Origin: Candidatus Micrarchaeia archaeon | Lineage (GTDB): Archaea > Micrarchaeota > Micrarchaeia > Anstonellales > J096 | Direction of reading: 5' to 3' | Length of the DNA: 64,000 nucleotides | NCBI GenBank assembly: GCA_041500405.1 | Contig: JBGQMB010000001.1 | Span: 9,490-73,489 of the forward strand | Part shown: one piece after another, positions 2,110-58,718 of the stretch | Position numbering within the stretch: the first letter of the stretch is position 1 | Layout: each line of letters opens with the position of its first letter | Notes under the pieces: generated by a model | What the model saw: the letters and a program-made list of their open reading frames with translations, nothing else | Database searches by the model: none | What the model was told of the DNA's origin: nothing | Program-made: the position numbers and the translations under genes

Positions 2110-2982
2110 TTGATGGACCCAGTTTCATACAGGGAATACCTTTCGCAGTACACTGATCCGGACGTTCTTCTGGACACGCTGGAGAGTTTGCGGAAGACAT
2201 TCAGGGTCAACACGCTCAAGTGCTCGGAAGAAAAGTTTCTTTCCTTTACTGAAATGAAGATGGAGAAGGAGCCCCTGCCCCTTGCGTACAGCATGGGCGC
2301 GGATTTTCCAATAGGCAACACGCTGGAGTTTTTCTCGGGCATGATTCATACGCAGACCCTTTCATCAATGCTCCCGCCGCTTGTTCTGGAGCCCAAGCCG
2401 CACGAAAAGGTGCTTGACATGGCGGCAGCCCCCGGCGGAAAGACAACCCAGATGAGCGCCATGATGAAAAACACGGGAATAATAATCGCGAATGACGTAA
2501 AGATAGGCAGGCTGAGCGTCCTTGTCGGCAACATGCGGAGGCTTGGCGCGCTCAACATAACTGTCACAAGGGGCGACGCAAGGCGCCTTGATTACAAAAA
2601 TGAGTTTGACAGGGTTTTGCTCGACGCCCCGTGCTCGTCCATGGGTTCGTCCCTTTCGTCTTTCAGGACATTGGACAGGGACAGGCTAAGGGATATGGCA
2701 AGGGTGCAAAGGAAACTGGCAATCGCGGGCTTTGACGCGCTCAAGCCAAACGGGGCAATGGTGTATTCCACGTGCACGTTTTCAAAGGAGGAGAACGAGG
2801 AAATAGTGAAATTCCTTCTTGAGAGCAGGCCAAGCGCAAGGCTGGAAAAAATAAGCATGGACATGCCCCACGACGGCGGGCTTTCCGAATACGGGGCGGA
2901 ATTTAAAAAAGTTTGGCGCATCCAACCGCACCACTTAAAAAGCGAAGGCTTCTTTATAGCGAGGATAAGCAAGGGCCCTTAG
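2110..2982 (+). CDS. NOL1/NOP2/Sun-family RNA cytosine-C5 methyltransferase
   Basis: DMAAAPGGKTTQM SAM-binding motif, DAPCSSMG (Pro-Cys motif) and YSTCTF (second catalytic Cys motif) characteristic of RsmB/NSUN enzymes. 290 aa. Confidence 0.8.
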   Translation: MMDPVSYREYLSQYTDPDVLLDTLESLRKTFRVNTLKCSEEKFLSFTEMKMEKEPLPLAYSMGADFPIGNTLEFFSGMIHTQTLSSMLPPLVLEPKPHEKVLDMAAAPGGKTTQMSAMMKNTGIIIANDVKIGRLSVLVGNMRRLGALNITVTRGDARRLDYKNEFDRVLLDAPCSSMGSSLSSFRTLDRDRLRDMARVQRKLAIAGFDALKPNGAMVYSTCTFSKEENEEIVKFLLESRPSARLEKISMDMPHDGGLSEYGAEFKKVWRIQPHHLKSEGFFIARISKGP

Positions 2983-3044
2983 ATCAGCGGTAGATCGCTC
3001 CCCTCGCACGGGAGAGGCCAGGGGTTCAAATCCCCTAGGGTCCA
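2973..3044 (+). tRNA. tRNA-Ala (anticodon CGC)
   Basis: Hand-folded cloverleaf: acceptor GGGCCCT/AGGGTCC with the G3:U70 Ala identity pair, D-arm GATC-AGCGGTA-GATC, anticodon arm CTCCC-CTCGCAC-GGGAG (anticodon CGC), T-arm AGGGG-TTCAAAT-CCCCT, discriminator A. No encoded CCA. The 5-prime end overlaps the last 10 nt of the preceding CDS. Confidence 0.9.
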
Positions 3045-3111: not shown

Positions 3112-3212
3112 TGGGGATACGGGGATTTGAACCCCGACCTACAGGTTTCTTCTAATCGCGCGTCCGCGCAAAACCTGGAGCCTGCCGTGCTACCTGGTTG
3201 CACTATACCCCC
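3112..3212 (-). tRNA. tRNA-Trp (anticodon CCA) with 28-nt intron after position 37
   Basis: Reverse complement folds as acceptor GGGGGTA/TATCCCC, D-arm GTGC-AACCAGGTA-GCAC, anticodon stem GCAGG/CCTGT with loop CTCCA(G) interrupted by GTTTTGCGCGGACGCGCGATTAGAAGAA, T-arm CGGGG-TTCAAAT-CCCCG, discriminator A. An intron at the canonical 37/38 site is typical of archaeal tRNA-Trp. Confidence 0.85.
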
Positions 3213-24551: not shown

Positions 24552-24625
24552 TGGGCCCGCTGGGAGTTGGACCCAGGACCTTTCGATTATCAGTCGAACG
24601 CTCTACCAGGCTGAGCTACGAGCCC
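24552..24625 (-). tRNA. tRNA-Ile (anticodon GAT)
   Basis: Reverse complement folds as acceptor GGGCTCG/CGGGCCC (one G-U), D-arm GCTC-AGCCTGGTA-GAGC, anticodon arm TTCGA-CTGATAA-TCGAA, variable AGGTC, T-arm CTGGG-TCCAACT-CCCAG, discriminator A. 74 nt, no CCA. Confidence 0.9.
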
Positions 24626-46300: not shown

Positions 46301-47101
46301 ATGGATACCAAAAATGCCACCGGAAGCGGACAAGGGCACAAGGATCCCCAGCCCGGCCGCACTGCCGCACATGAGCCATTGGAAAGCGGAACCGGCGAGC
46401 ACAACTTTTTTGCTCAATTGTGCAGCAAGCTTTCAAAAGACCGCCAGGCAGTCTCATTCATAACCGCCCTTTCAAGAAGCATAACCCCGGCCATGCCGAA
46501 CTATGAGCTGCTGGCCAAAGGCAAAAGCGCCTCAAACGCCCTGGTCCTTCTTGCAAAGCGCATAGCCGAAATCTATAGGGACAGCCCGCCCCACGGCAGC
46601 ATGGCGTCACAGGCCGCGCTCAGGGCGATTTGCGGGCCAAGGCTTGACGAAGGCTCGCTGTCCCTTCTGCTTTCAGCGGCGCTCCGCTCTTCAGAGATGC
46701 ACACAGGCCTTTGCATCAACACCATAAGCGACATGGCGGAGAAGGGAATCCTGTCGTGCGCAGGCGTCGGGGGCACCCTGGATTCATTTGTCATACGCAC
46801 CGATGCGAACGAGGTTTATCCGTTCCTCCTGGTGTCGGATGCCGCGCTTTCCAACCCGCACATGCCTCAAGGGAGCATTACCATAGCCGTGCTTTCTGAC
46901 ATCCATGATGCAGTCTCGGCATTCTGCCGCAATTCCCCCGGCAGCAGCTTGCCGATAGAGGTGCTCAACATGGCGGCATATCTTGAAATCATGTCGTTCC
47001 AAGTGCACACGCACGCCGATTCCCCTGCCCATGAGCCGTCTGCAGCTGCCGGCGAAAATGCCATCAAGCAGATGATAAAGATGATGCAGGGCAAGCCATA
47101 G
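46301..47101 (+). CDS. hypothetical helical protein
   Basis: 266 aa, Ala/Leu/Ser-rich helices. No family recognised. Confidence 0.4.
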   Translation: MDTKNATGSGQGHKDPQPGRTAAHEPLESGTGEHNFFAQLCSKLSKDRQAVSFITALSRSITPAMPNYELLAKGKSASNALVLLAKRIAEIYRDSPPHGSMASQAALRAICGPRLDEGSLSLLLSAALRSSEMHTGLCINTISDMAEKGILSCAGVGGTLDSFVIRTDANEVYPFLLVSDAALSNPHMPQGSITIAVLSDIHDAVSAFCRNSPGSSLPIEVLNMAAYLEIMSFQVHTHADSPAHEPSAAAGENAIKQMIKMMQGKP

Positions 47102-52794: not shown

Positions 52795-53557
52795 CATAAA
52801 GGATCTCAAGCTTCCGCAGAAGGACGAGCTTGTAGTCGGCGAAGTGAAGAAGGTCCTGAATTACGGCGCATTCTGCTCATTATTGGAGTATCCGGGCGTT
52901 GACGGGTTTTTGCACGTCAGCGAGGTCGCAAGCAAGTGGATAAGGAACATAGGCGAGTATGTCAGGGAGAACCAGAGGGTCGTAATCAAGGTAATAAACG
53001 TCGACCCAGGCAAGAACGTGGTTGACGTCTCATTAAGGCGCGTCAATGAGAACGAAAGGAAGCAGGTGCTGGAGTTTTTCGACAGCAACCAAAAGGCAGA
53101 AAGGATGATAGGGGTTGCTTCAAAAAAGACCAAGATTGAGGTTCCTGCAAACATCGTTTCTGAAATACTGAAAACCTACAGCTCGGTCTATGATTTCGCA
53201 TATGACGTTTATGAGAAGGGCGAGGCAGTGGCGGAAAAGGCCGGCATGCCGAAAAAGCTCGCAACGGCCTATTTCGAGCTGGTCCAGATCTCAATGAAGC
53301 CGTCCAAGGTCACCGTAAGGGCCGAGATAAAGGCAACATCCCTCAGGCCCAAAGGCGTTGAGGACATAAGGGCCGTGCTTTCCGGGATAGAGGGCGCCTC
53401 AATAAAATACCTGGGCGCGCCGAGGTACATGGCGGTAATAGAGGACGAGTCGTTCAAGCAGGCCAACAAGAGGATGACCGCGCTTTTGTCGTCGGTGGAA
53501 AAGAAGGCAAAGGCGTCCGGCGTGTCCATGGAATACGAGATAATGAAAAATGAGTGA
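52787..53557 (+). CDS. translation initiation factor 2 alpha subunit (aIF-2 alpha)
   Basis: N-terminal S1 domain VVGEVKKVLNYGAFCSLLEYPGVDGFLHVSEVASKWIRNI...VIKVINVD. 256 aa. Confidence 0.85.
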   Translation: MSDIKDLKLPQKDELVVGEVKKVLNYGAFCSLLEYPGVDGFLHVSEVASKWIRNIGEYVRENQRVVIKVINVDPGKNVVDVSLRRVNENERKQVLEFFDSNQKAERMIGVASKKTKIEVPANIVSEILKTYSSVYDFAYDVYEKGEAVAEKAGMPKKLATAYFELVQISMKPSKVTVRAEIKATSLRPKGVEDIRAVLSGIEGASIKYLGAPRYMAVIEDESFKQANKRMTALLSSVEKKAKASGVSMEYEIMKNE

Positions 53558-53711
53558 AATTCTTGGAAGATTGAGGAGGTGCACGGCATGCGGGGCATAC
53601 ACGATGCTCATCACCCACCACAAAATGCTCTCAACCAACGCCCACAGCCCGGTTTTTAAGCCTTTTGACAGATACGCAAAGTATAGGGAGATGGAGAAGG
53701 AGATTGAATGA
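53550..53711 (+). CDS. nop10: H/ACA RNP protein Nop10
   Basis: 53 aa, below the ORF track cutoff, translated manually. RRCTACGAYTM...HSPVFKPFDRYAKYR matches the Nop10 pattern (CxxCG...HPPRFSP.D.Y.KYR). Only one CxxC pair present. Overlaps flanking genes by 8 and 4 nt. Confidence 0.65.
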   Translation: MSEILGRLRRCTACGAYTMLITHHKMLSTNAHSPVFKPFDRYAKYREMEKEIE

Positions 53712-55187: not shown

Positions 55188-55811
55188 ATGAAGGAGATAT
55201 ATCTGCCGGGCGACAAGCTGCCGGCTTCCGTGCGCGTTTCGAGGCTGAACCAGAACGCGGTCAGGAGGCAGGGCAACGTGCTGTACGCCACGGTCGTGGG
55301 TTCAGTCAGCGACGAGATGTTCATGCCGTTTGAGATGGTGTACATCCCGAAGGAGGGGGACTCCATAGTCGGCATAGTGACAGGCAAGAGGAACGTCGGC
55401 TATTTCGTGGACACCGGAACGGCTTATGAGGGCCTGATACTGTCAAGGGAGACAAGGATAGAGCTTAGCATAGGCGACATCGTGTGCGGAAAGGTCGACA
55501 GGGTGGAGGACGAGGACACCATCATAGTGTCGCACGCGAAACAGCTTGAGGTTGGCCGGGTCCTTGACCTGCCGCCGTCCAAGATACCGAGGATAATCGG
55601 CAAGGAGGCGAGCATGATAAACCTGATAAAGAGCCACACCGGAGTGGACATATTCGTAGGCGCAAACGGCTACGTCTGGATAAGCTCAAAGGGAAAGCTC
55701 AACAAGGCAATCCAGGCAATGACCACAATAGTCAACAAGGCCCATATGGAAGGGCTTACTGACGAGATAACAAAATTCCTCGAACAGGGTGAAACTCATG
55801 GGAACGCATAA
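55188..55811 (+). CDS. rrp4: exosome RNA-binding subunit Rrp4 (S1 plus KH)
   Basis: S1 region GDIVCGKV and KH motif IPRIIGKEASMINLIKSHTGVDIFVGANGYVWI. 207 aa. Confidence 0.75.
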   Translation: MKEIYLPGDKLPASVRVSRLNQNAVRRQGNVLYATVVGSVSDEMFMPFEMVYIPKEGDSIVGIVTGKRNVGYFVDTGTAYEGLILSRETRIELSIGDIVCGKVDRVEDEDTIIVSHAKQLEVGRVLDLPPSKIPRIIGKEASMINLIKSHTGVDIFVGANGYVWISSKGKLNKAIQAMTTIVNKAHMEGLTDEITKFLEQGETHGNA

Positions 55812-56544
55812 TCCAAACCTGAAGCTCATAGCAGCTGACGGAAAAAGGCTGGACGGAAGGACAGCCAACCAGCTTAGGAACATACGCATAGACGTCGGCG
55901 TCCTTGAGGGCGCGGTCGGCTCGGCATATGTGGAGTGGGGCGACAACAAGGTCATCGCCGGAGTATATGGCCCAAGGGAAGTTTTTCCAAAGTTCTTCGC
56001 AAAGGCGGACAGGGCCATTGTAAGGACAATCTACTCAATGTCAACGTTTGCGTCCTTGGAGGAGCACGGCAGGGCCGGCCCAAACAGGAGGAGCAACGAG
56101 ATTTCCATGGTTCTTGCCGAGGCGTTCGAGAACGTGGTCATGATAGAGAAGTTCCCGACAAAGATGATTGACACGCACATAACGGTCCTCCAGGCCGCGG
56201 CAGGGACAAGGATAGCCGCGTTCCTGGCAGGCGTTGCGGCGCTCATAGACGGCGGATTCCCGATGAATGACATCGCGGCCGGCGTTTCAGTCGGAAAGGC
56301 GGACGGGGCGCTTGTGGTTGACCTCAACAAGGAGGAGGACAACTTCGGGCAGGCGGACATGCCTATTGTGTTCTCAGGCTCTGACGACATTTTGCTGCTC
56401 CAGATGGACGGCAAGATGACAAGGGAGGAAATAAAGGAGGGCCTGGACCTGACAAACGAGGCGTCCAAGGCCATAATGGGCATGATAAGGAAAGCGGTTG
56501 GAGCCAAGTATGAAGGCGCGATATCCAACAAGCTCAACCTTTGA
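55789..56544 (+). CDS. rrp41: exosome complex exonuclease Rrp41 (RNase PH-like, catalytic)
   Basis: RLDGRTANQLRNIRIDVGVLEGAVGSAYVEWGDNKVIAGVYGPRE RNase PH domain 1 signature. 251 aa. Confidence 0.9.
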   Translation: MKLMGTHNPNLKLIAADGKRLDGRTANQLRNIRIDVGVLEGAVGSAYVEWGDNKVIAGVYGPREVFPKFFAKADRAIVRTIYSMSTFASLEEHGRAGPNRRSNEISMVLAEAFENVVMIEKFPTKMIDTHITVLQAAAGTRIAAFLAGVAALIDGGFPMNDIAAGVSVGKADGALVVDLNKEEDNFGQADMPIVFSGSDDILLLQMDGKMTREEIKEGLDLTNEASKAIMGMIRKAVGAKYEGAISNKLNL

Positions 56545-56554
56545 GGCGATATTC

Positions 56555-57349
56555 ATGGTAAAAGAAAGCGTTTTGAAAAGGATGAGAAGGGAATTCCAGA
56601 TAGATGTCCTTGAAAGCGGCGTTAGACCTGACGGAAGGGGCTTCCGCGACTACAGGGACATCAAGGTCACGACAAATGTCATAGGAAGCGCCGAAGGGTC
56701 GGCGCTTGCGCAGATCGGCAACACGAAAGTGCTGGCCGGCGTCAAGCTCGGGATGCTGACGCCGTTCCCGGACGAGCCGAACAAGGGCGTCATGATGGTT
56801 GGGGCGGAGCTTCTGCCGATGGCGTCGCCGACATTCGAGCCCGGGCCCCCTGACGAAAGGAGCATTGAGTTCAGCAGGGTGGTTGACAGGGGAATAAGGA
56901 GCGCGGAAATAGTTGACATGAGCAAGCTCTTTGTCGAGGAAGGCAAGGTCCTTGGCCTTTTTATCGACCTTTATGTGCTTGACTACGACGGCAACCTGTT
57001 TGACACCGGAACGCTGGCGGCGGTCGCGGCACTGAAGAACACGAAAATGCCGAAGATAGAGAACGGCGCGATAGTGAGGGGGGAATACACCGGCCCGCTT
57101 GAGGTGCTCGGCTACCCGACATCGTCAACGTTCGTCAAGATAGGCAACTACATACTGATTGACCCTGAGATGCACGAGGAAGGGGCGGCCGACTCAAGGC
57201 TTACGGTAACGGTTTGCGACGACAAGGTGGTCGCGATGCAGAAAGGCGGCAACGGCGGCCTCAAAAAGGAGGAAGTGGTTAACTTAATAAACATTTCTTT
57301 CGAAAAGAGGGACACGCTGATGAAATACATCACAGGGCGAGGGTTATGA
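56555..57349 (+). CDS. rrp42: exosome subunit Rrp42 (RNase PH-like, non-catalytic)
   Basis: RPDGRGFRDYRDIKVTTNVIGSAEGSALAQIGNTKVLAGVK RNase PH fold. Start set at MVKESV (56555), preceded by GAGGCGAT SD; the track ORF starts inside rrp41. Confidence 0.8.
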   Translation: MVKESVLKRMRREFQIDVLESGVRPDGRGFRDYRDIKVTTNVIGSAEGSALAQIGNTKVLAGVKLGMLTPFPDEPNKGVMMVGAELLPMASPTFEPGPPDERSIEFSRVVDRGIRSAEIVDMSKLFVEEGKVLGLFIDLYVLDYDGNLFDTGTLAAVAALKNTKMPKIENGAIVRGEYTGPLEVLGYPTSSTFVKIGNYILIDPEMHEEGAADSRLTVTVCDDKVVAMQKGGNGGLKKEEVVNLINISFEKRDTLMKYITGRGL

Positions 57350-57579
57350 TAAACACAGTGAAGTTCGGAAGGAAGATAAGGAATTTATACAACAAGGCAT
57401 TCGAGGGCAGGAAAGAGTTCGAGTGCCCGAAGTGCGGAAAAATAGGCAAGATGAAGAAGAAATCGTTCTCGGTCTGGGAATGCAAGTCCTGCGGCGCGGT
57501 TGTCGCAGGAGGGGCGTACCAGCTTACGACGGAGGCGGGGGAAACCATGAAAAGGATCCTGACCTCAACAAAAAGGTGA
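57346..57579 (+). CDS. rpl37ae: ribosomal protein L37ae (eL43)
   Basis: C4 zinc ribbon CPKCGKIGKMKKKSFSVWECKSCGAV. 77 aa. Confidence 0.85.
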   Translation: MINTVKFGRKIRNLYNKAFEGRKEFECPKCGKIGKMKKKSFSVWECKSCGAVVAGGAYQLTTEAGETMKRILTSTKR

Positions 57580-57723
57580 ATGAAGATGCCCAATTACAGA
57601 GTATGGCTTTCAGGAGAGAAGATAGAGATAAAGGACGTAAAGAACTACACCCTGGCGCTTTCCGGCGCAAAGATACTGCTTAAGGAGAGGCCGCCGGTCG
57701 CAAAAGAGGTCTCCACGGATTGA
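57580..57723 (+). CDS. rpoP: RNA polymerase subunit P (RpoP/Rpb12-like) variant lacking all four zinc-ligand cysteines
   Basis: 47 aa, manually translated: MKMPNYRVWLSGEKIEIKDVKNYTLALSGAKILLKERPPVAKEVSTD. Aligns to the RpoP consensus YxCxxCxxxIEI...VRCPYCGSKILYKPRP with Cys replaced by V, S, L, S. Sits in the conserved position between L37ae and Brix. Confidence 0.5.
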   Translation: MKMPNYRVWLSGEKIEIKDVKNYTLALSGAKILLKERPPVAKEVSTD

Positions 57724-58166
57724 TTCTTCTAACAACCTCCCTTAATCCAACAAAAGGCGCAAGGTCCCTTGCAAGGGGCCTTTCAAACTCCATTTTTGGC
57801 TTCTATATGAACAGGGGCAGCGCCACATTTGAGCGCGTGATGCGGAAAGCAGCGTCTTTAGGATGCGCCAAAGCGGCGTTCGTGTTTTCCGGCAATGGAA
57901 AGGCGTCAAGGATAAGGTTCGCCTCGCTGGACAACGGGTGGGCGTGGGACAGGGAGGAGTTCGTTGTCAGCAGGCATCCGCAGTCTTCCGTGGAACGCAA
58001 AAACGGCGAGGCTGCTTCAAGGTCAAAGAAGCTGAAAAGCGCCTTCGGGCTTTCCGGCCCGGCAGCGGACGCGGACAGGGTTCTGTCATATTCTGGAAAA
58101 AAACTTTCAATAAAGGAAGGAAAAAAAGAGGTGTTTTGGGTTGAAGGGCATTTCTCTAAGCGCTGA
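57720..58166 (+). CDS. Brix-domain (Imp4-like) ribosome biogenesis protein
   Basis: ILLTTSLNPTKGARSLARGLSNSIFGFYMNRG matches the archaeal Brix N-terminus (ITTSRKPS..TR.F...L). 148 aa. Apparent TTG start at 57720. Confidence 0.65.
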   Translation: MILLTTSLNPTKGARSLARGLSNSIFGFYMNRGSATFERVMRKAASLGCAKAAFVFSGNGKASRIRFASLDNGWAWDREEFVVSRHPQSSVERKNGEAASRSKKLKSAFGLSGPAADADRVLSYSGKKLSIKEGKKEVFWVEGHFSKR

Positions 58167-58377
58167 GATAAGGGTAAATGGGGACATGAAGACGCTGGCT
58201 GCGATGAAGGCCGCGCTGCTCGAGTCCAAGGACGCAAGGATATGTGGAAGCGTTTCGCTGAAAAAATCGCTTGTGATAACCGTTGAATCGCCGGATGCGA
58301 CGGCGTTGAGGGCAGGTTTAAATACATATCTAAGGATATTGCAATCAGTCGAGGATATTTCAAAAGGTGATTATTGA
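58141..58377 (+). CDS. small protein in the Pcc1 (KEOPS subunit) slot, Pcc1-like
   Basis: 78 aa. ISLSAEIRVNGD...SLVITVESPDATALRAGLNTYLRILQSVEDI is compatible with the Pcc1 beta-alpha fold. Position between Brix and prefoldin beta is where Pcc1 is commonly found. Not verified. Confidence 0.4.
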   Translation: MKGISLSAEIRVNGDMKTLAAMKAALLESKDARICGSVSLKKSLVITVESPDATALRAGLNTYLRILQSVEDISKGDY

Positions 58378-58718
58378 TGGCATCAGCAGACATAGAAGAA
58401 AAGGTAATAGAGTTCCAGAAAATGGAGAAGCAGCTCGAGATGTACATGGGGCAAAGGTACCAGTTCGAGATGCAGCTTGCGGAGACGAATGCGGCAACGG
58501 AAGAGATATCCAAGCTTGCGGAATCTGCGGAAATATACAAGTCAACGGGCGGCTTCTTCGTGAAGGTGGCAAAGGCTCCTGCGCTTGAGGAGCTCAACTC
58601 AAGGAAAACGCTGCTTGAAAGCAGGTCCAAGATGTTCAGGGAGCAGGAGGAGAAGCTCAAGGTGAGCCTGACGAGACTTGGAAAAAGCCTTGAGGAAGAG
58701 ATGAAGGGCGCAAAGTGA
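58374..58718 (+). CDS. pfdB: prefoldin beta subunit
   Basis: 114 aa coiled-coil, beta-hairpin, coiled-coil: EKQLEMYMGQRYQFEMQLAE...YKSTGGFFVKV...LESRSKMFREQEEKLK. Confidence 0.7.
   Translation: MMASADIEEKVIEFQKMEKQLEMYMGQRYQFEMQLAETNAATEEISKLAESAEIYKSTGGFFVKVAKAPALEELNSRKTLLESRSKMFREQEEKLKVSLTRLGKSLEEEMKGAK

Follow-up and report, generated by a model that had tools for sequence, protein, structure and literature searches.

Can subunit P of the archaeal RNA polymerase (RNAP) persist once every ligand of its zinc ribbon has gone? Reich et al. 2009 (PMC2680338) described the CX2C...CX2C motif of Rpb12/RpoP as conserved from archaea to eukaryotes. The question is raised by a short open reading frame (ORF) in a stretch of 64,000 nucleotides (nt) from contig JBGQMB010000001.1 of a Candidatus Micrarchaeia archaeon; this whole stretch is referred to below as the window. 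The ORF occupies the place of rpoP, and its product is free of cysteine. We hold, with a probability of roughly 0.8, that a large branch of the Micrarchaeota (DPANN) has here a functional, single-locus ortholog of Rpo12/RpoP whose capacity to bind zinc is gone. The parts of the gene on which the argument turns are the following, some of them placed by hidden Markov model (HMM) alignments.

57580–57723, + strand: the ORF as first noted, 47 amino acid residues (aa) with zero cysteines, read from the sequence, MKMPNYRVWLSGEKIEIKDVKNYTLALSGAKILLKERPPVAKEVSTD
57586–57723, + strand: probable coding sequence of the Cys-free rpoP (Rpo12/Rpb12 ortholog), 45 aa plus stop, with a start shared with homologues
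57574–57578, + strand: GGTGA, a Shine-Dalgarno-like site inferred from the sequence, 7 nt 5′ of the ATG at 57586
57595–57615, + strand: former first zinc knuckle, Y4-R-V6-W-L-S9-G10 (canonical Y-x-C-x-x-C-G), from HMM alignments
57646–57666, + strand: former second zinc knuckle, Y21-T-L23-A-L-S26-G27 (canonical V-R-C-P-Y-C-G), from HMM alignments
57667–57720, + strand: conserved C-terminal block AKILLKERPPVAKEVSTD, residues 28–45 of the window protein, equivalent to residues 32–49 of Pyrococcus furiosus RpoP

The original prediction had read the ORF as 47 aa, from 57580 to 57723. Its existence and its lack of cysteine stand, and its start is likelier to lie farther in. The true start is most likely the ATG at 57586, giving a 45-aa product that begins MPNY, because all homologues start there (with MPNY or MGEY), because a Shine-Dalgarno-like site lies upstream, and because the exact 45-aa product is already recorded at NCBI in the metagenome-assembled genome (MAG) GCA_041478675.1. 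The alternative in-frame ATG at 57580 adds Met-Lys only. The Shine-Dalgarno-like GGTGA overlaps the stop codon of the L37ae gene (57577–57579).

Relationship of the ORF to RpoP

The first line of evidence is position. The gene order Rrp4-Rrp41-Rrp42-L37ae-[ORF]-Brix/Imp4-Pcc1-prefoldin beta is that of the archaeal exosome superoperon, in which the ORF occupies the rpoP slot; an exosome/rpl37ae-rpoP superoperon has been described for Euryarchaeota and DPANN (PMC10450193). The second line is similarity, which is faint at the level of the single protein. A Pfam scan of the window protein gives no match, and the full NCBIfam library gives three, all to RpoP models, at E-values of 0.0035–0.02. With only 45 residues and the cysteines gone, a single-sequence search is expected to be weak. 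Among 121 Cys-free members of the family, the RpoP NCBIfam models are matched by up to 49 at E≤0.01 (best 1e-6), and no NCBIfam family other than RpoP is returned for these 121.

At the profile level the relationship becomes clear. When a profile of 13 Cys-free orthologs was compared with 177,635 PDB sequences, the two best matches were RpoP of Thermococcus kodakarensis (4qiw_P, E 0.0046) and Rpo12 of P. furiosus (E 0.019), the third-ranked match following at E 0.81. Register is kept in both alignments, with Y-x-[C]-x-x-[C]-G set against Y-R-V-W-L-S-G in the first knuckle, and [C]-P-Y-[C]-G-S-K-I-L-x-K-x-R-P against L-A-L-S-G-A-K-I-L-L-K-E-R-P from the second knuckle into the tail. It follows that the four cysteine positions are V, S, L and S in the window protein, exactly as had been predicted from the sequence.

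The third line is provided by sequences that bridge the two forms. Sister Micrarchaeia carry canonical RpoPs with all four cysteines (Cys4) in the same operon, for example MAYVCMHCGKEMKAIEKNTVRCPYCGYRVIAKKRSSIAKEVSTD at locus L016 and protein P0122 at locus L033. The latter passes PF03604 with E 1e-9, and both end in ...AKEVSTD, as the Cys-free family does. Alignment by hhalign of the 121 Cys-free sequences with seven Cys4 sequences from sister Micrarchaeia gives 96% probability and E 4e-9, and covers the C-terminal block. A metagenome scan with the family alignment returned six loci, of which only L027 and L028 are relevant; their Cys4 genes share the string K-x-RPPVAKEVSTD unchanged with the Cys-free family and precede Brix-like ORFs, after which L027 also has Pcc1-like and prefoldin-like ORFs. 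The other four loci, L029–L032, were rejected as relatives: they are unrelated ORFs of about 260 aa on GC-rich contigs, in which the string SGAKILLKERPP occurs by chance. A string at these loci, SASGAKILLKERPPLG, has 12 residues identical to the RpoP tail and is likewise judged to be chance.

The search can also be made in the opposite direction. An HMM built from the Cys4 sisters alone was run against the six-frame translations of the window and the relatives' loci (5,273 segments), and the ORF at 57580–57723 is its sole convincing match in the window (E 0.003), the next segment, 46566–46727, standing at E 0.88. No canonical rpoP is present in the 64-kb window, nor within about 4 kb on either side of the loci of the Cys-free relatives. 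Cys4 forms fill the same slot in sister lineages, and co-occurrence of a Cys4 with a Cys-free form is not seen. The reading first proposed for this ORF, an RpoP/Rpb12 bereft of its four zinc-ribbon cysteines, is thus borne out by its orthologous position, by the profile comparisons and by Cys4 sequences that share the tail and bridge the two forms. The window ORF descends from a Cys4 RpoP of the same operon position.

Loss of the zinc ligands across the family

The original prediction had asked for a check of relatives for the same substitution, and the substitution proves to be general. A protein database search at E≤10 returned 255 clusters, of which the best 120 were checked. All 120 lack the four cysteines; 99 have no cysteine at all and 21 have one, at unrelated positions. 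Another 16 divergent sequences (50%-identity representatives), all Cys-free, came from an exhaustive profile search over 1.84 billion representatives. Frame and length are retained in orthologs at 38–55% identity. Among relatives' loci, which were fetched by similarity to Rrp42 (48–87% identity), a Cys-free ortholog lies directly after rpl37ae in 12 genome loci, all labelled as Micrarchaeota, Micrarchaeia or 'Ca. ainarchaeum' MAGs.

The replacements are regular, as a census of alignment columns in the 121 Cys-free members makes plain. The first cysteine position is occupied by Asp in 85, Glu in 27 and Val in 9; the second by Thr in 99 and Ser in 21; the third by Phe in 116 and Leu in 5; and the fourth by Thr in 85 and Ser in 35. 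The residues that frame the knuckles are largely kept: Gly after the second cysteine position in 109 members, Pro after the third in 116 (with Ala in the window's subclade), and Gly after the fourth in every one. Phe stands two residues before the third position in 115 of the 121, while the Arg that precedes this position (R26 in P. furiosus) has been lost in the Cys-free family. The window protein belongs to a minority subclade with V/S/L/S at the four positions. In the window protein Cys1 has become Val (57601–57603) and Cys2 Ser (57610–57612), with the following Gly retained, and Cys3 has become Leu (57652–57654) and Cys4 Ser (57661–57663), again with retention of the Gly.

The tail is almost invariant over some 18 residues, with the consensus A-K-[IVM]-L-x-K-x-R-P-P-x-A-K-E-x-x-T-D. 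Its Lys (K33 in the window protein, K37 in P. furiosus) is found in 120 of the 121 members, and its Arg (R35 and R39, respectively), like the Pro that comes next, in all of them.

Selection was assessed by Nei-Gojobori counts, with the N-half and C-half of the ORF taken apart. Between the window and its relative L006 there are eight synonymous and two non-synonymous differences (Sd 8, Nd 2) in the whole ORF, divided into Sd 5 and Nd 2 in the N-half (omega about 0.08) and Sd 3 and Nd 0 in the C-half. Within the L008 clade, omega for the N-half is 0–0.11 at a proportion of synonymous differences (pS) of 0.27–0.71. Between subclades, the corresponding non-synonymous proportion (pN) is 0.39–0.48 for the N-half and about 0.2 for the C-half. 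The ratio of non-synonymous to synonymous rates (dN/dS) of about 0–0.1 in close pairs shows that both halves of the Cys-free RpoP are under purifying selection. With 255 clusters and this dN/dS, the locus departs from the case that the original prediction had set against itself, namely an ORF that is not conserved beside a canonical rpoP elsewhere.

In a neighbour-joining tree of Rrp41 plus Rrp42, the Cys-free taxa form two subclades, which make a trichotomy with a clade of the Cys4 taxa (L016 and L033) and L018 and L019. The cysteines were lost once or twice, and the intermediates P0130, P0135 and P0138 hint at one origin. Reduction has gone further in forms of 35–36 aa (P0140 and P0142), which occupy the same operon slot and lack the first hairpin; there is either no space for a longer frame or a Shine-Dalgarno site directly before the short start. 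The first hairpin is thus not required in every lineage. Such RpoP-derived peptides of 35–36 aa are encoded at L036 1055–1165, L037 2501–2608 and L038 129–236 (for example, MPTEKEGEKFFKMPSAGNKIVIKLRPVIAKEVKTD).

Set beside canonical RpoP (Rpo12, Rpb12 or ABC10-alpha; PF03604 Zn_ribbon_RPAB4, COG1996, PRK00398), the Cys-free family is alike in its size of about 45 aa, its slot after rpl37ae, its layout of two knuckles with their Gly, Pro and Gly, its K-x-R-P tail and its best PDB matches. It differs in having neither the four zinc ligands nor the Arg before Cys3, and in escaping recognition by PF03604. Judged by these comparisons, the protein is an RpoP ortholog that fails its family's eponymous structural feature.

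Proposed function of a zinc-free subunit and competing explanations

What such a protein could do is suggested by work on P. furiosus. RNAP without subunit P forms no stable open complexes (Reich et al. 2009, PMC2680338). The ΔP enzyme regains permanganate reactivity, and about 80% of its activity in single-round assays, when it is given a synthetic peptide of RpoP residues 32–49, which has no cysteine and in which K37 and R39 are the only conserved residues left (PMC2680338). The Cys-free family keeps this sufficient segment, also without cysteine, together with the equivalents of K37 and R39; it differs from the peptide in being a natural protein of Micrarchaeota, under selection, with a conserved N-terminal half. 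The natural peptides of 35–36 aa are a near-equivalent of the in vitro 'C-terminal peptide'.

We infer the following arrangement. The C-terminal tail would dock on the Rpo2/Rpo3 surface and might supply the open-complex function, by analogy with the equivalent 17–18-residue P. furiosus peptide in vitro. The former ribbon would persist as a small metal-free β-hairpin module, in which a hydrophobic mini-core (F-x-F-P, or Y-x-L-A in the window's subclade) and polar caps would take the place of zinc. Mesophily may render zinc stabilisation dispensable, the hairpin module being enough to hold the subunit on the enzyme. Docking on RNAP, metal-free folding and the thermal argument are all of this inferred kind. 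Of the two consequences that the original prediction had drawn from a zinc-free variant, compensatory stabilisation may well underlie the regular replacements, with which it agrees (Cys3 to Phe in 116 of 121, a second Phe two residues before it, and the retained knuckle Pro and Gly); there is no need to suppose a structurally reduced RNAP.

The AlphaFold2 (AF2) model of the Cys-free protein has three short strands at ribbon-like positions and a confidence (predicted local distance difference test, pLDDT) of 61.7; the Cys4 sister, taken as a control, reaches 68 for the whole model, with its ribbon at about 80. All eight of the PDB matches of the AF2 model in Foldseek are RpoP or Rpb12 chains, with template modelling (TM) scores of 0.52–0.59 but E-values of at least 1. 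Given the low AF2 confidence for both the Cys-free and the Cys4 models, the structural argument rests on the sequence pattern. Weak Pfam matches to the PcrA/UvrD tudor domain, as at residues 9–40 of P0035, might have pointed to a ribbon-to-SH3 transition but are regarded as probable noise: they occur in 27 of the 121 members with a best E of 0.005, which became 0.22 on re-inspection. The PcrA/UvrD tudor domain binds RNAP.

Several points weigh against a functional zinc-free RpoP. The NCBIfam scores to RpoP all lie far below the curated cut-offs, and PF03604 recognises none of the 121 Cys-free members at E≤1; hence the alignment to PF03604 that had been suggested as a check fails with the Pfam model, while significance is reached at the profile level. 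The absence of a canonical paralog covers only 64 kb of the organism's own genome. A single bipartition of the Cys-free taxa is supported in only 34 of 100 bootstraps. With the low confidence of the AF2 model, a folded zinc-free ribbon is no more than a prediction, and the peptide is a putative component of RNAP. Finally, the P. furiosus C27S/C30S mutant subunit is badly impaired and easily displaced or loosely bound (PMC2680338), and in yeast, according to Rubbi et al. 1999 as quoted in PMC2680338, only the first cysteine is essential. Since simple loss of cysteine is deleterious in both organisms, compensation must be assumed in the Cys-free family. The P. furiosus mutant is engineered and impaired, whereas the Micrarchaeota form implies compensation, by Cys3 to Phe and by Val to Phe two residues before it.

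Among the alternatives, the one that survives best holds that the ORF is a micro-protein derived from RpoP that has acquired a new function outside RNAP, for example with another partner from the superoperon, and that RNAP operates without subunit P. The Cys-free family shows a reduction both of the Arg before Cys3 (R26 in P. furiosus) and of the tail's basicity, its N-half differs between subclades to the extent given above (pN 0.39–0.48), and viral RNAPs such as that of African swine fever virus (ASFV) work without Rpb12 (PMC10881513). However, the part left unchanged is exactly the C-terminal peptide that is functional in RNAP, with the K37 and R39 equivalents; the same tail occurs in Cys4 sisters that pass PF03604, and Foldseek matches RpoP/Rpb12 chains only. 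Conservation of precisely this RNAP-functional tail makes a neofunctionalised peptide unlikely.

A little less probable still is that the ORF is a decaying relic, redundant or without function and preserved merely through its place in the operon, and that the true RpoP is a canonical Cys4 protein encoded at another site of the genome. Only the 64 kb of the window have been inspected, Pfam is blind to the ORF, and in the relatives L018 and L019 no rpoP adjoins L37ae, from which it follows that rpoP can sit elsewhere in this phylum. A relic would not be expected to show strong purifying selection in both halves, nor regular replacements and a tail of 18 residues that hardly varies across 255 clusters. 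Moreover, no canonical match is found in the window or at any Cys-free locus, and Cys4 forms replace the Cys-free form in the slot without co-occurring with it. Selection and positional replacement thus make a relic unlikely.

It is very improbable that a metal is still bound by alternative ligands, with Asp or Glu at Cys1 and Ser or Thr at Cys2 and Cys4. An acidic residue does occupy the Cys1 position in 112 of the 121 members. Against this, every one of the 121 has Phe or Leu at Cys3, Ser and Thr are poor zinc ligands, and the V/S/L/S of the window protein is no plausible ligand set, which excludes such binding for this protein. That the ORF arose by chance, or owes its conservation to an opposite-strand feature or an RNA element, as its very short length and the small minus-strand ORFs at 57524–57670 and 57610–57735 might suggest, is effectively refuted by the conservation of the family, whose orthologs at 38–55% identity hold frame and length, by substitutions that are overwhelmingly synonymous in the rpoP frame, and by an Rfam scan without a match at the ORF.

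We return, then, to a functional RpoP without zinc. The zinc site of RpoP seems to be dispensable in nature. It is probable, if somewhat less firmly held than the identity of the ORF, that a major branch of Micrarchaeota runs its only RNAP with a metal-free Rpo12, its ribbon held by the aromatic mini-core F-x-F-P-x-T-G and, in some lineages, worn down to a peptide of 35 aa. If true, nature would here demonstrate for the first time that cells can dispense with the zinc site of Rpb12/RpoP, which is universally conserved, and a zinc-free form selected throughout a clade would be the in vivo counterpart of the sufficiency of the C-terminal peptide in vitro. The family would also offer an evolutionary series, from Cys4 through Cys0 to shortened forms (35 aa), for dissecting the role of the ribbon; it points to candidate residues that could stand in for zinc (Phe at Cys3, another Phe two residues before it, and polar caps), and its natural variants could probe what the ribbon contributes to keeping the subunit on the enzyme and to opening the promoter.

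Full-text literature searches turned up no paper that describes an RpoP/Rpb12 without cysteines. The supposition that the form is rarely, if ever, noted agrees with this, with the qualification that IMG/JGI already names four of the best 120 members 'RPC12/RpoP'; where one of these 120 has an NCBI name, it is 'hypothetical protein'. With this label and the blindness of PF03604, RpoP could be scored as missing in many Micrarchaeota by comparative surveys that depend on such models. A comparative-genomics study of DPANN gives a list of conserved RNAP subunits without RpoP (PMC8407392). A Cys-free RpoP fits the existing biochemistry of RNAP, would be somewhat surprising to RNAP specialists and has a consequence for annotation.

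Other small proteins have taken comparable routes. Makarova, Ponomarev and Koonin reportedly described in 2001, under the title 'Two C or not two C', C+ and C− forms of zinc-ribbon bacterial ribosomal proteins. The likeness is that evolution has recurrently disrupted a C4 ribbon in a small information-processing protein whose function is retained. Those proteins differ in being bacterial, often paralog pairs, and linked to zinc limitation; here we deal with an archaeal RNAP subunit, apparently single-copy, whose neighbouring ribosomal zinc ribbons are intact. In the RNAPs of ASFV and vaccinia virus (PMC10881513), the assembly platform is likewise simplified at the Rpb12 position, although there the subunit is wholly absent and here only the metal site is lost. 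Cren7/Sul7 are reported to be metal-free domains from an archaeal zinc-ribbon ancestor (Kaur et al. 2018, PMC5906684). That case would resemble ours in leading from such an ancestor to another small, β-rich family; it would differ in its SH3-like barrel and chromatin function, since no new fold is indicated here.

Gene neighbourhood and other zinc ribbons

The genes that surround the ORF in the window are listed below; rrp4, rrp41 and rrp42 were assigned, as a set, by Pfam KH/S1 and RNase_PH domains.

55188–55811, + strand: exosome gene rrp4
55789–56544, + strand: exosome gene rrp41
56498–57349, + strand: exosome gene rrp42
57346–57579, + strand: rpl37ae (eL43), which ends directly before the ORF at 57580 (PF01780, E 2.8e-17)
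57720–58166, + strand: degenerate Brix/Imp4-like gene (NCBIfam rRNA maturation protein, E 1e-3)
58141–58377, + strand: pcc1 (PF09341, E 3e-7)
58374–58718, + strand: prefoldin beta (PF01920, E 1e-18)

A gene for a DHH protein also lies downstream, with pcc1 and prefoldin beta. The placement of the ORF between rpl37ae and brix, as originally read, is upheld, L37ae being recognised by PF01780 and the Brix/Imp4-like gene being degenerate. The TTG start of the latter overlaps the rpoP stop by 4 nt. A Pfam scan of the ORF at 57720–58166 gave no match; its N-terminus, MILLTTSLNP, which holds the one motif still recognisable, resembles the MILITTSRRP of Brix proteins in the relatives L021 and L022.

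The Brix/Imp4 gene is reduced elsewhere too. In some relatives the gene after rpoP encodes about 83 aa, and in the L008 clade it is missing, with pcc1 directly 3′ of rpoP; the loci concerned are L008, L009, L010, L012, L014, L017 and L025, and L011, L013 and L015. In the Cys4 sisters an extra ORF of 119–121 aa is inserted between rpl37ae and rpoP (L016 5024–5389 and L033 4637–4996), for which Pfam gives no match.

Is the loss of cysteine part of a wider trend? The original prediction had called for other zinc-ribbon proteins to be checked. CxxC pairs are retained in five of them in the window, L37ae, S27e, L44e, aIF2-beta and TFE-alpha, and the C4 ribbon of L37ae is intact (CPKC...CKSC). Cysteine makes up 1.26% of residues across the window ORFs, an ordinary share. 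We therefore reject proteome-wide depletion of cysteine or a general erosion of zinc ribbons; with the other ribbons of the window intact, the loss is specific to RpoP.

Two further small zinc-ribbon proteins deserve mention. Nop10 of the window (53550–53711, + strand; PF04135, E 2e-7) has its first CxxC (CTAC) and a second knuckle without cysteine (…THHKM…); the Nop10 of a relative (L005 6020–6190) reads CVKC…YHCNE. The window Nop10 may represent partial erosion, or a switch of ligand, in a second small zinc-ribbon protein of this lineage. The L37ae ortholog at L019 4842–5111 (uncultured archaeon LFW-156_1) has lost three of its four zinc-ribbon cysteines (YESPIIHKMS…WICDSTGY), and no rpoP-like ORF comes after it.

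The window also contains three tRNA genes, at 2973–3044 (+ strand), 3112–3212 (− strand) and 24552–24625 (− strand). The second of these probably has an intron, as it spans 101 nt for a model of 71 positions.

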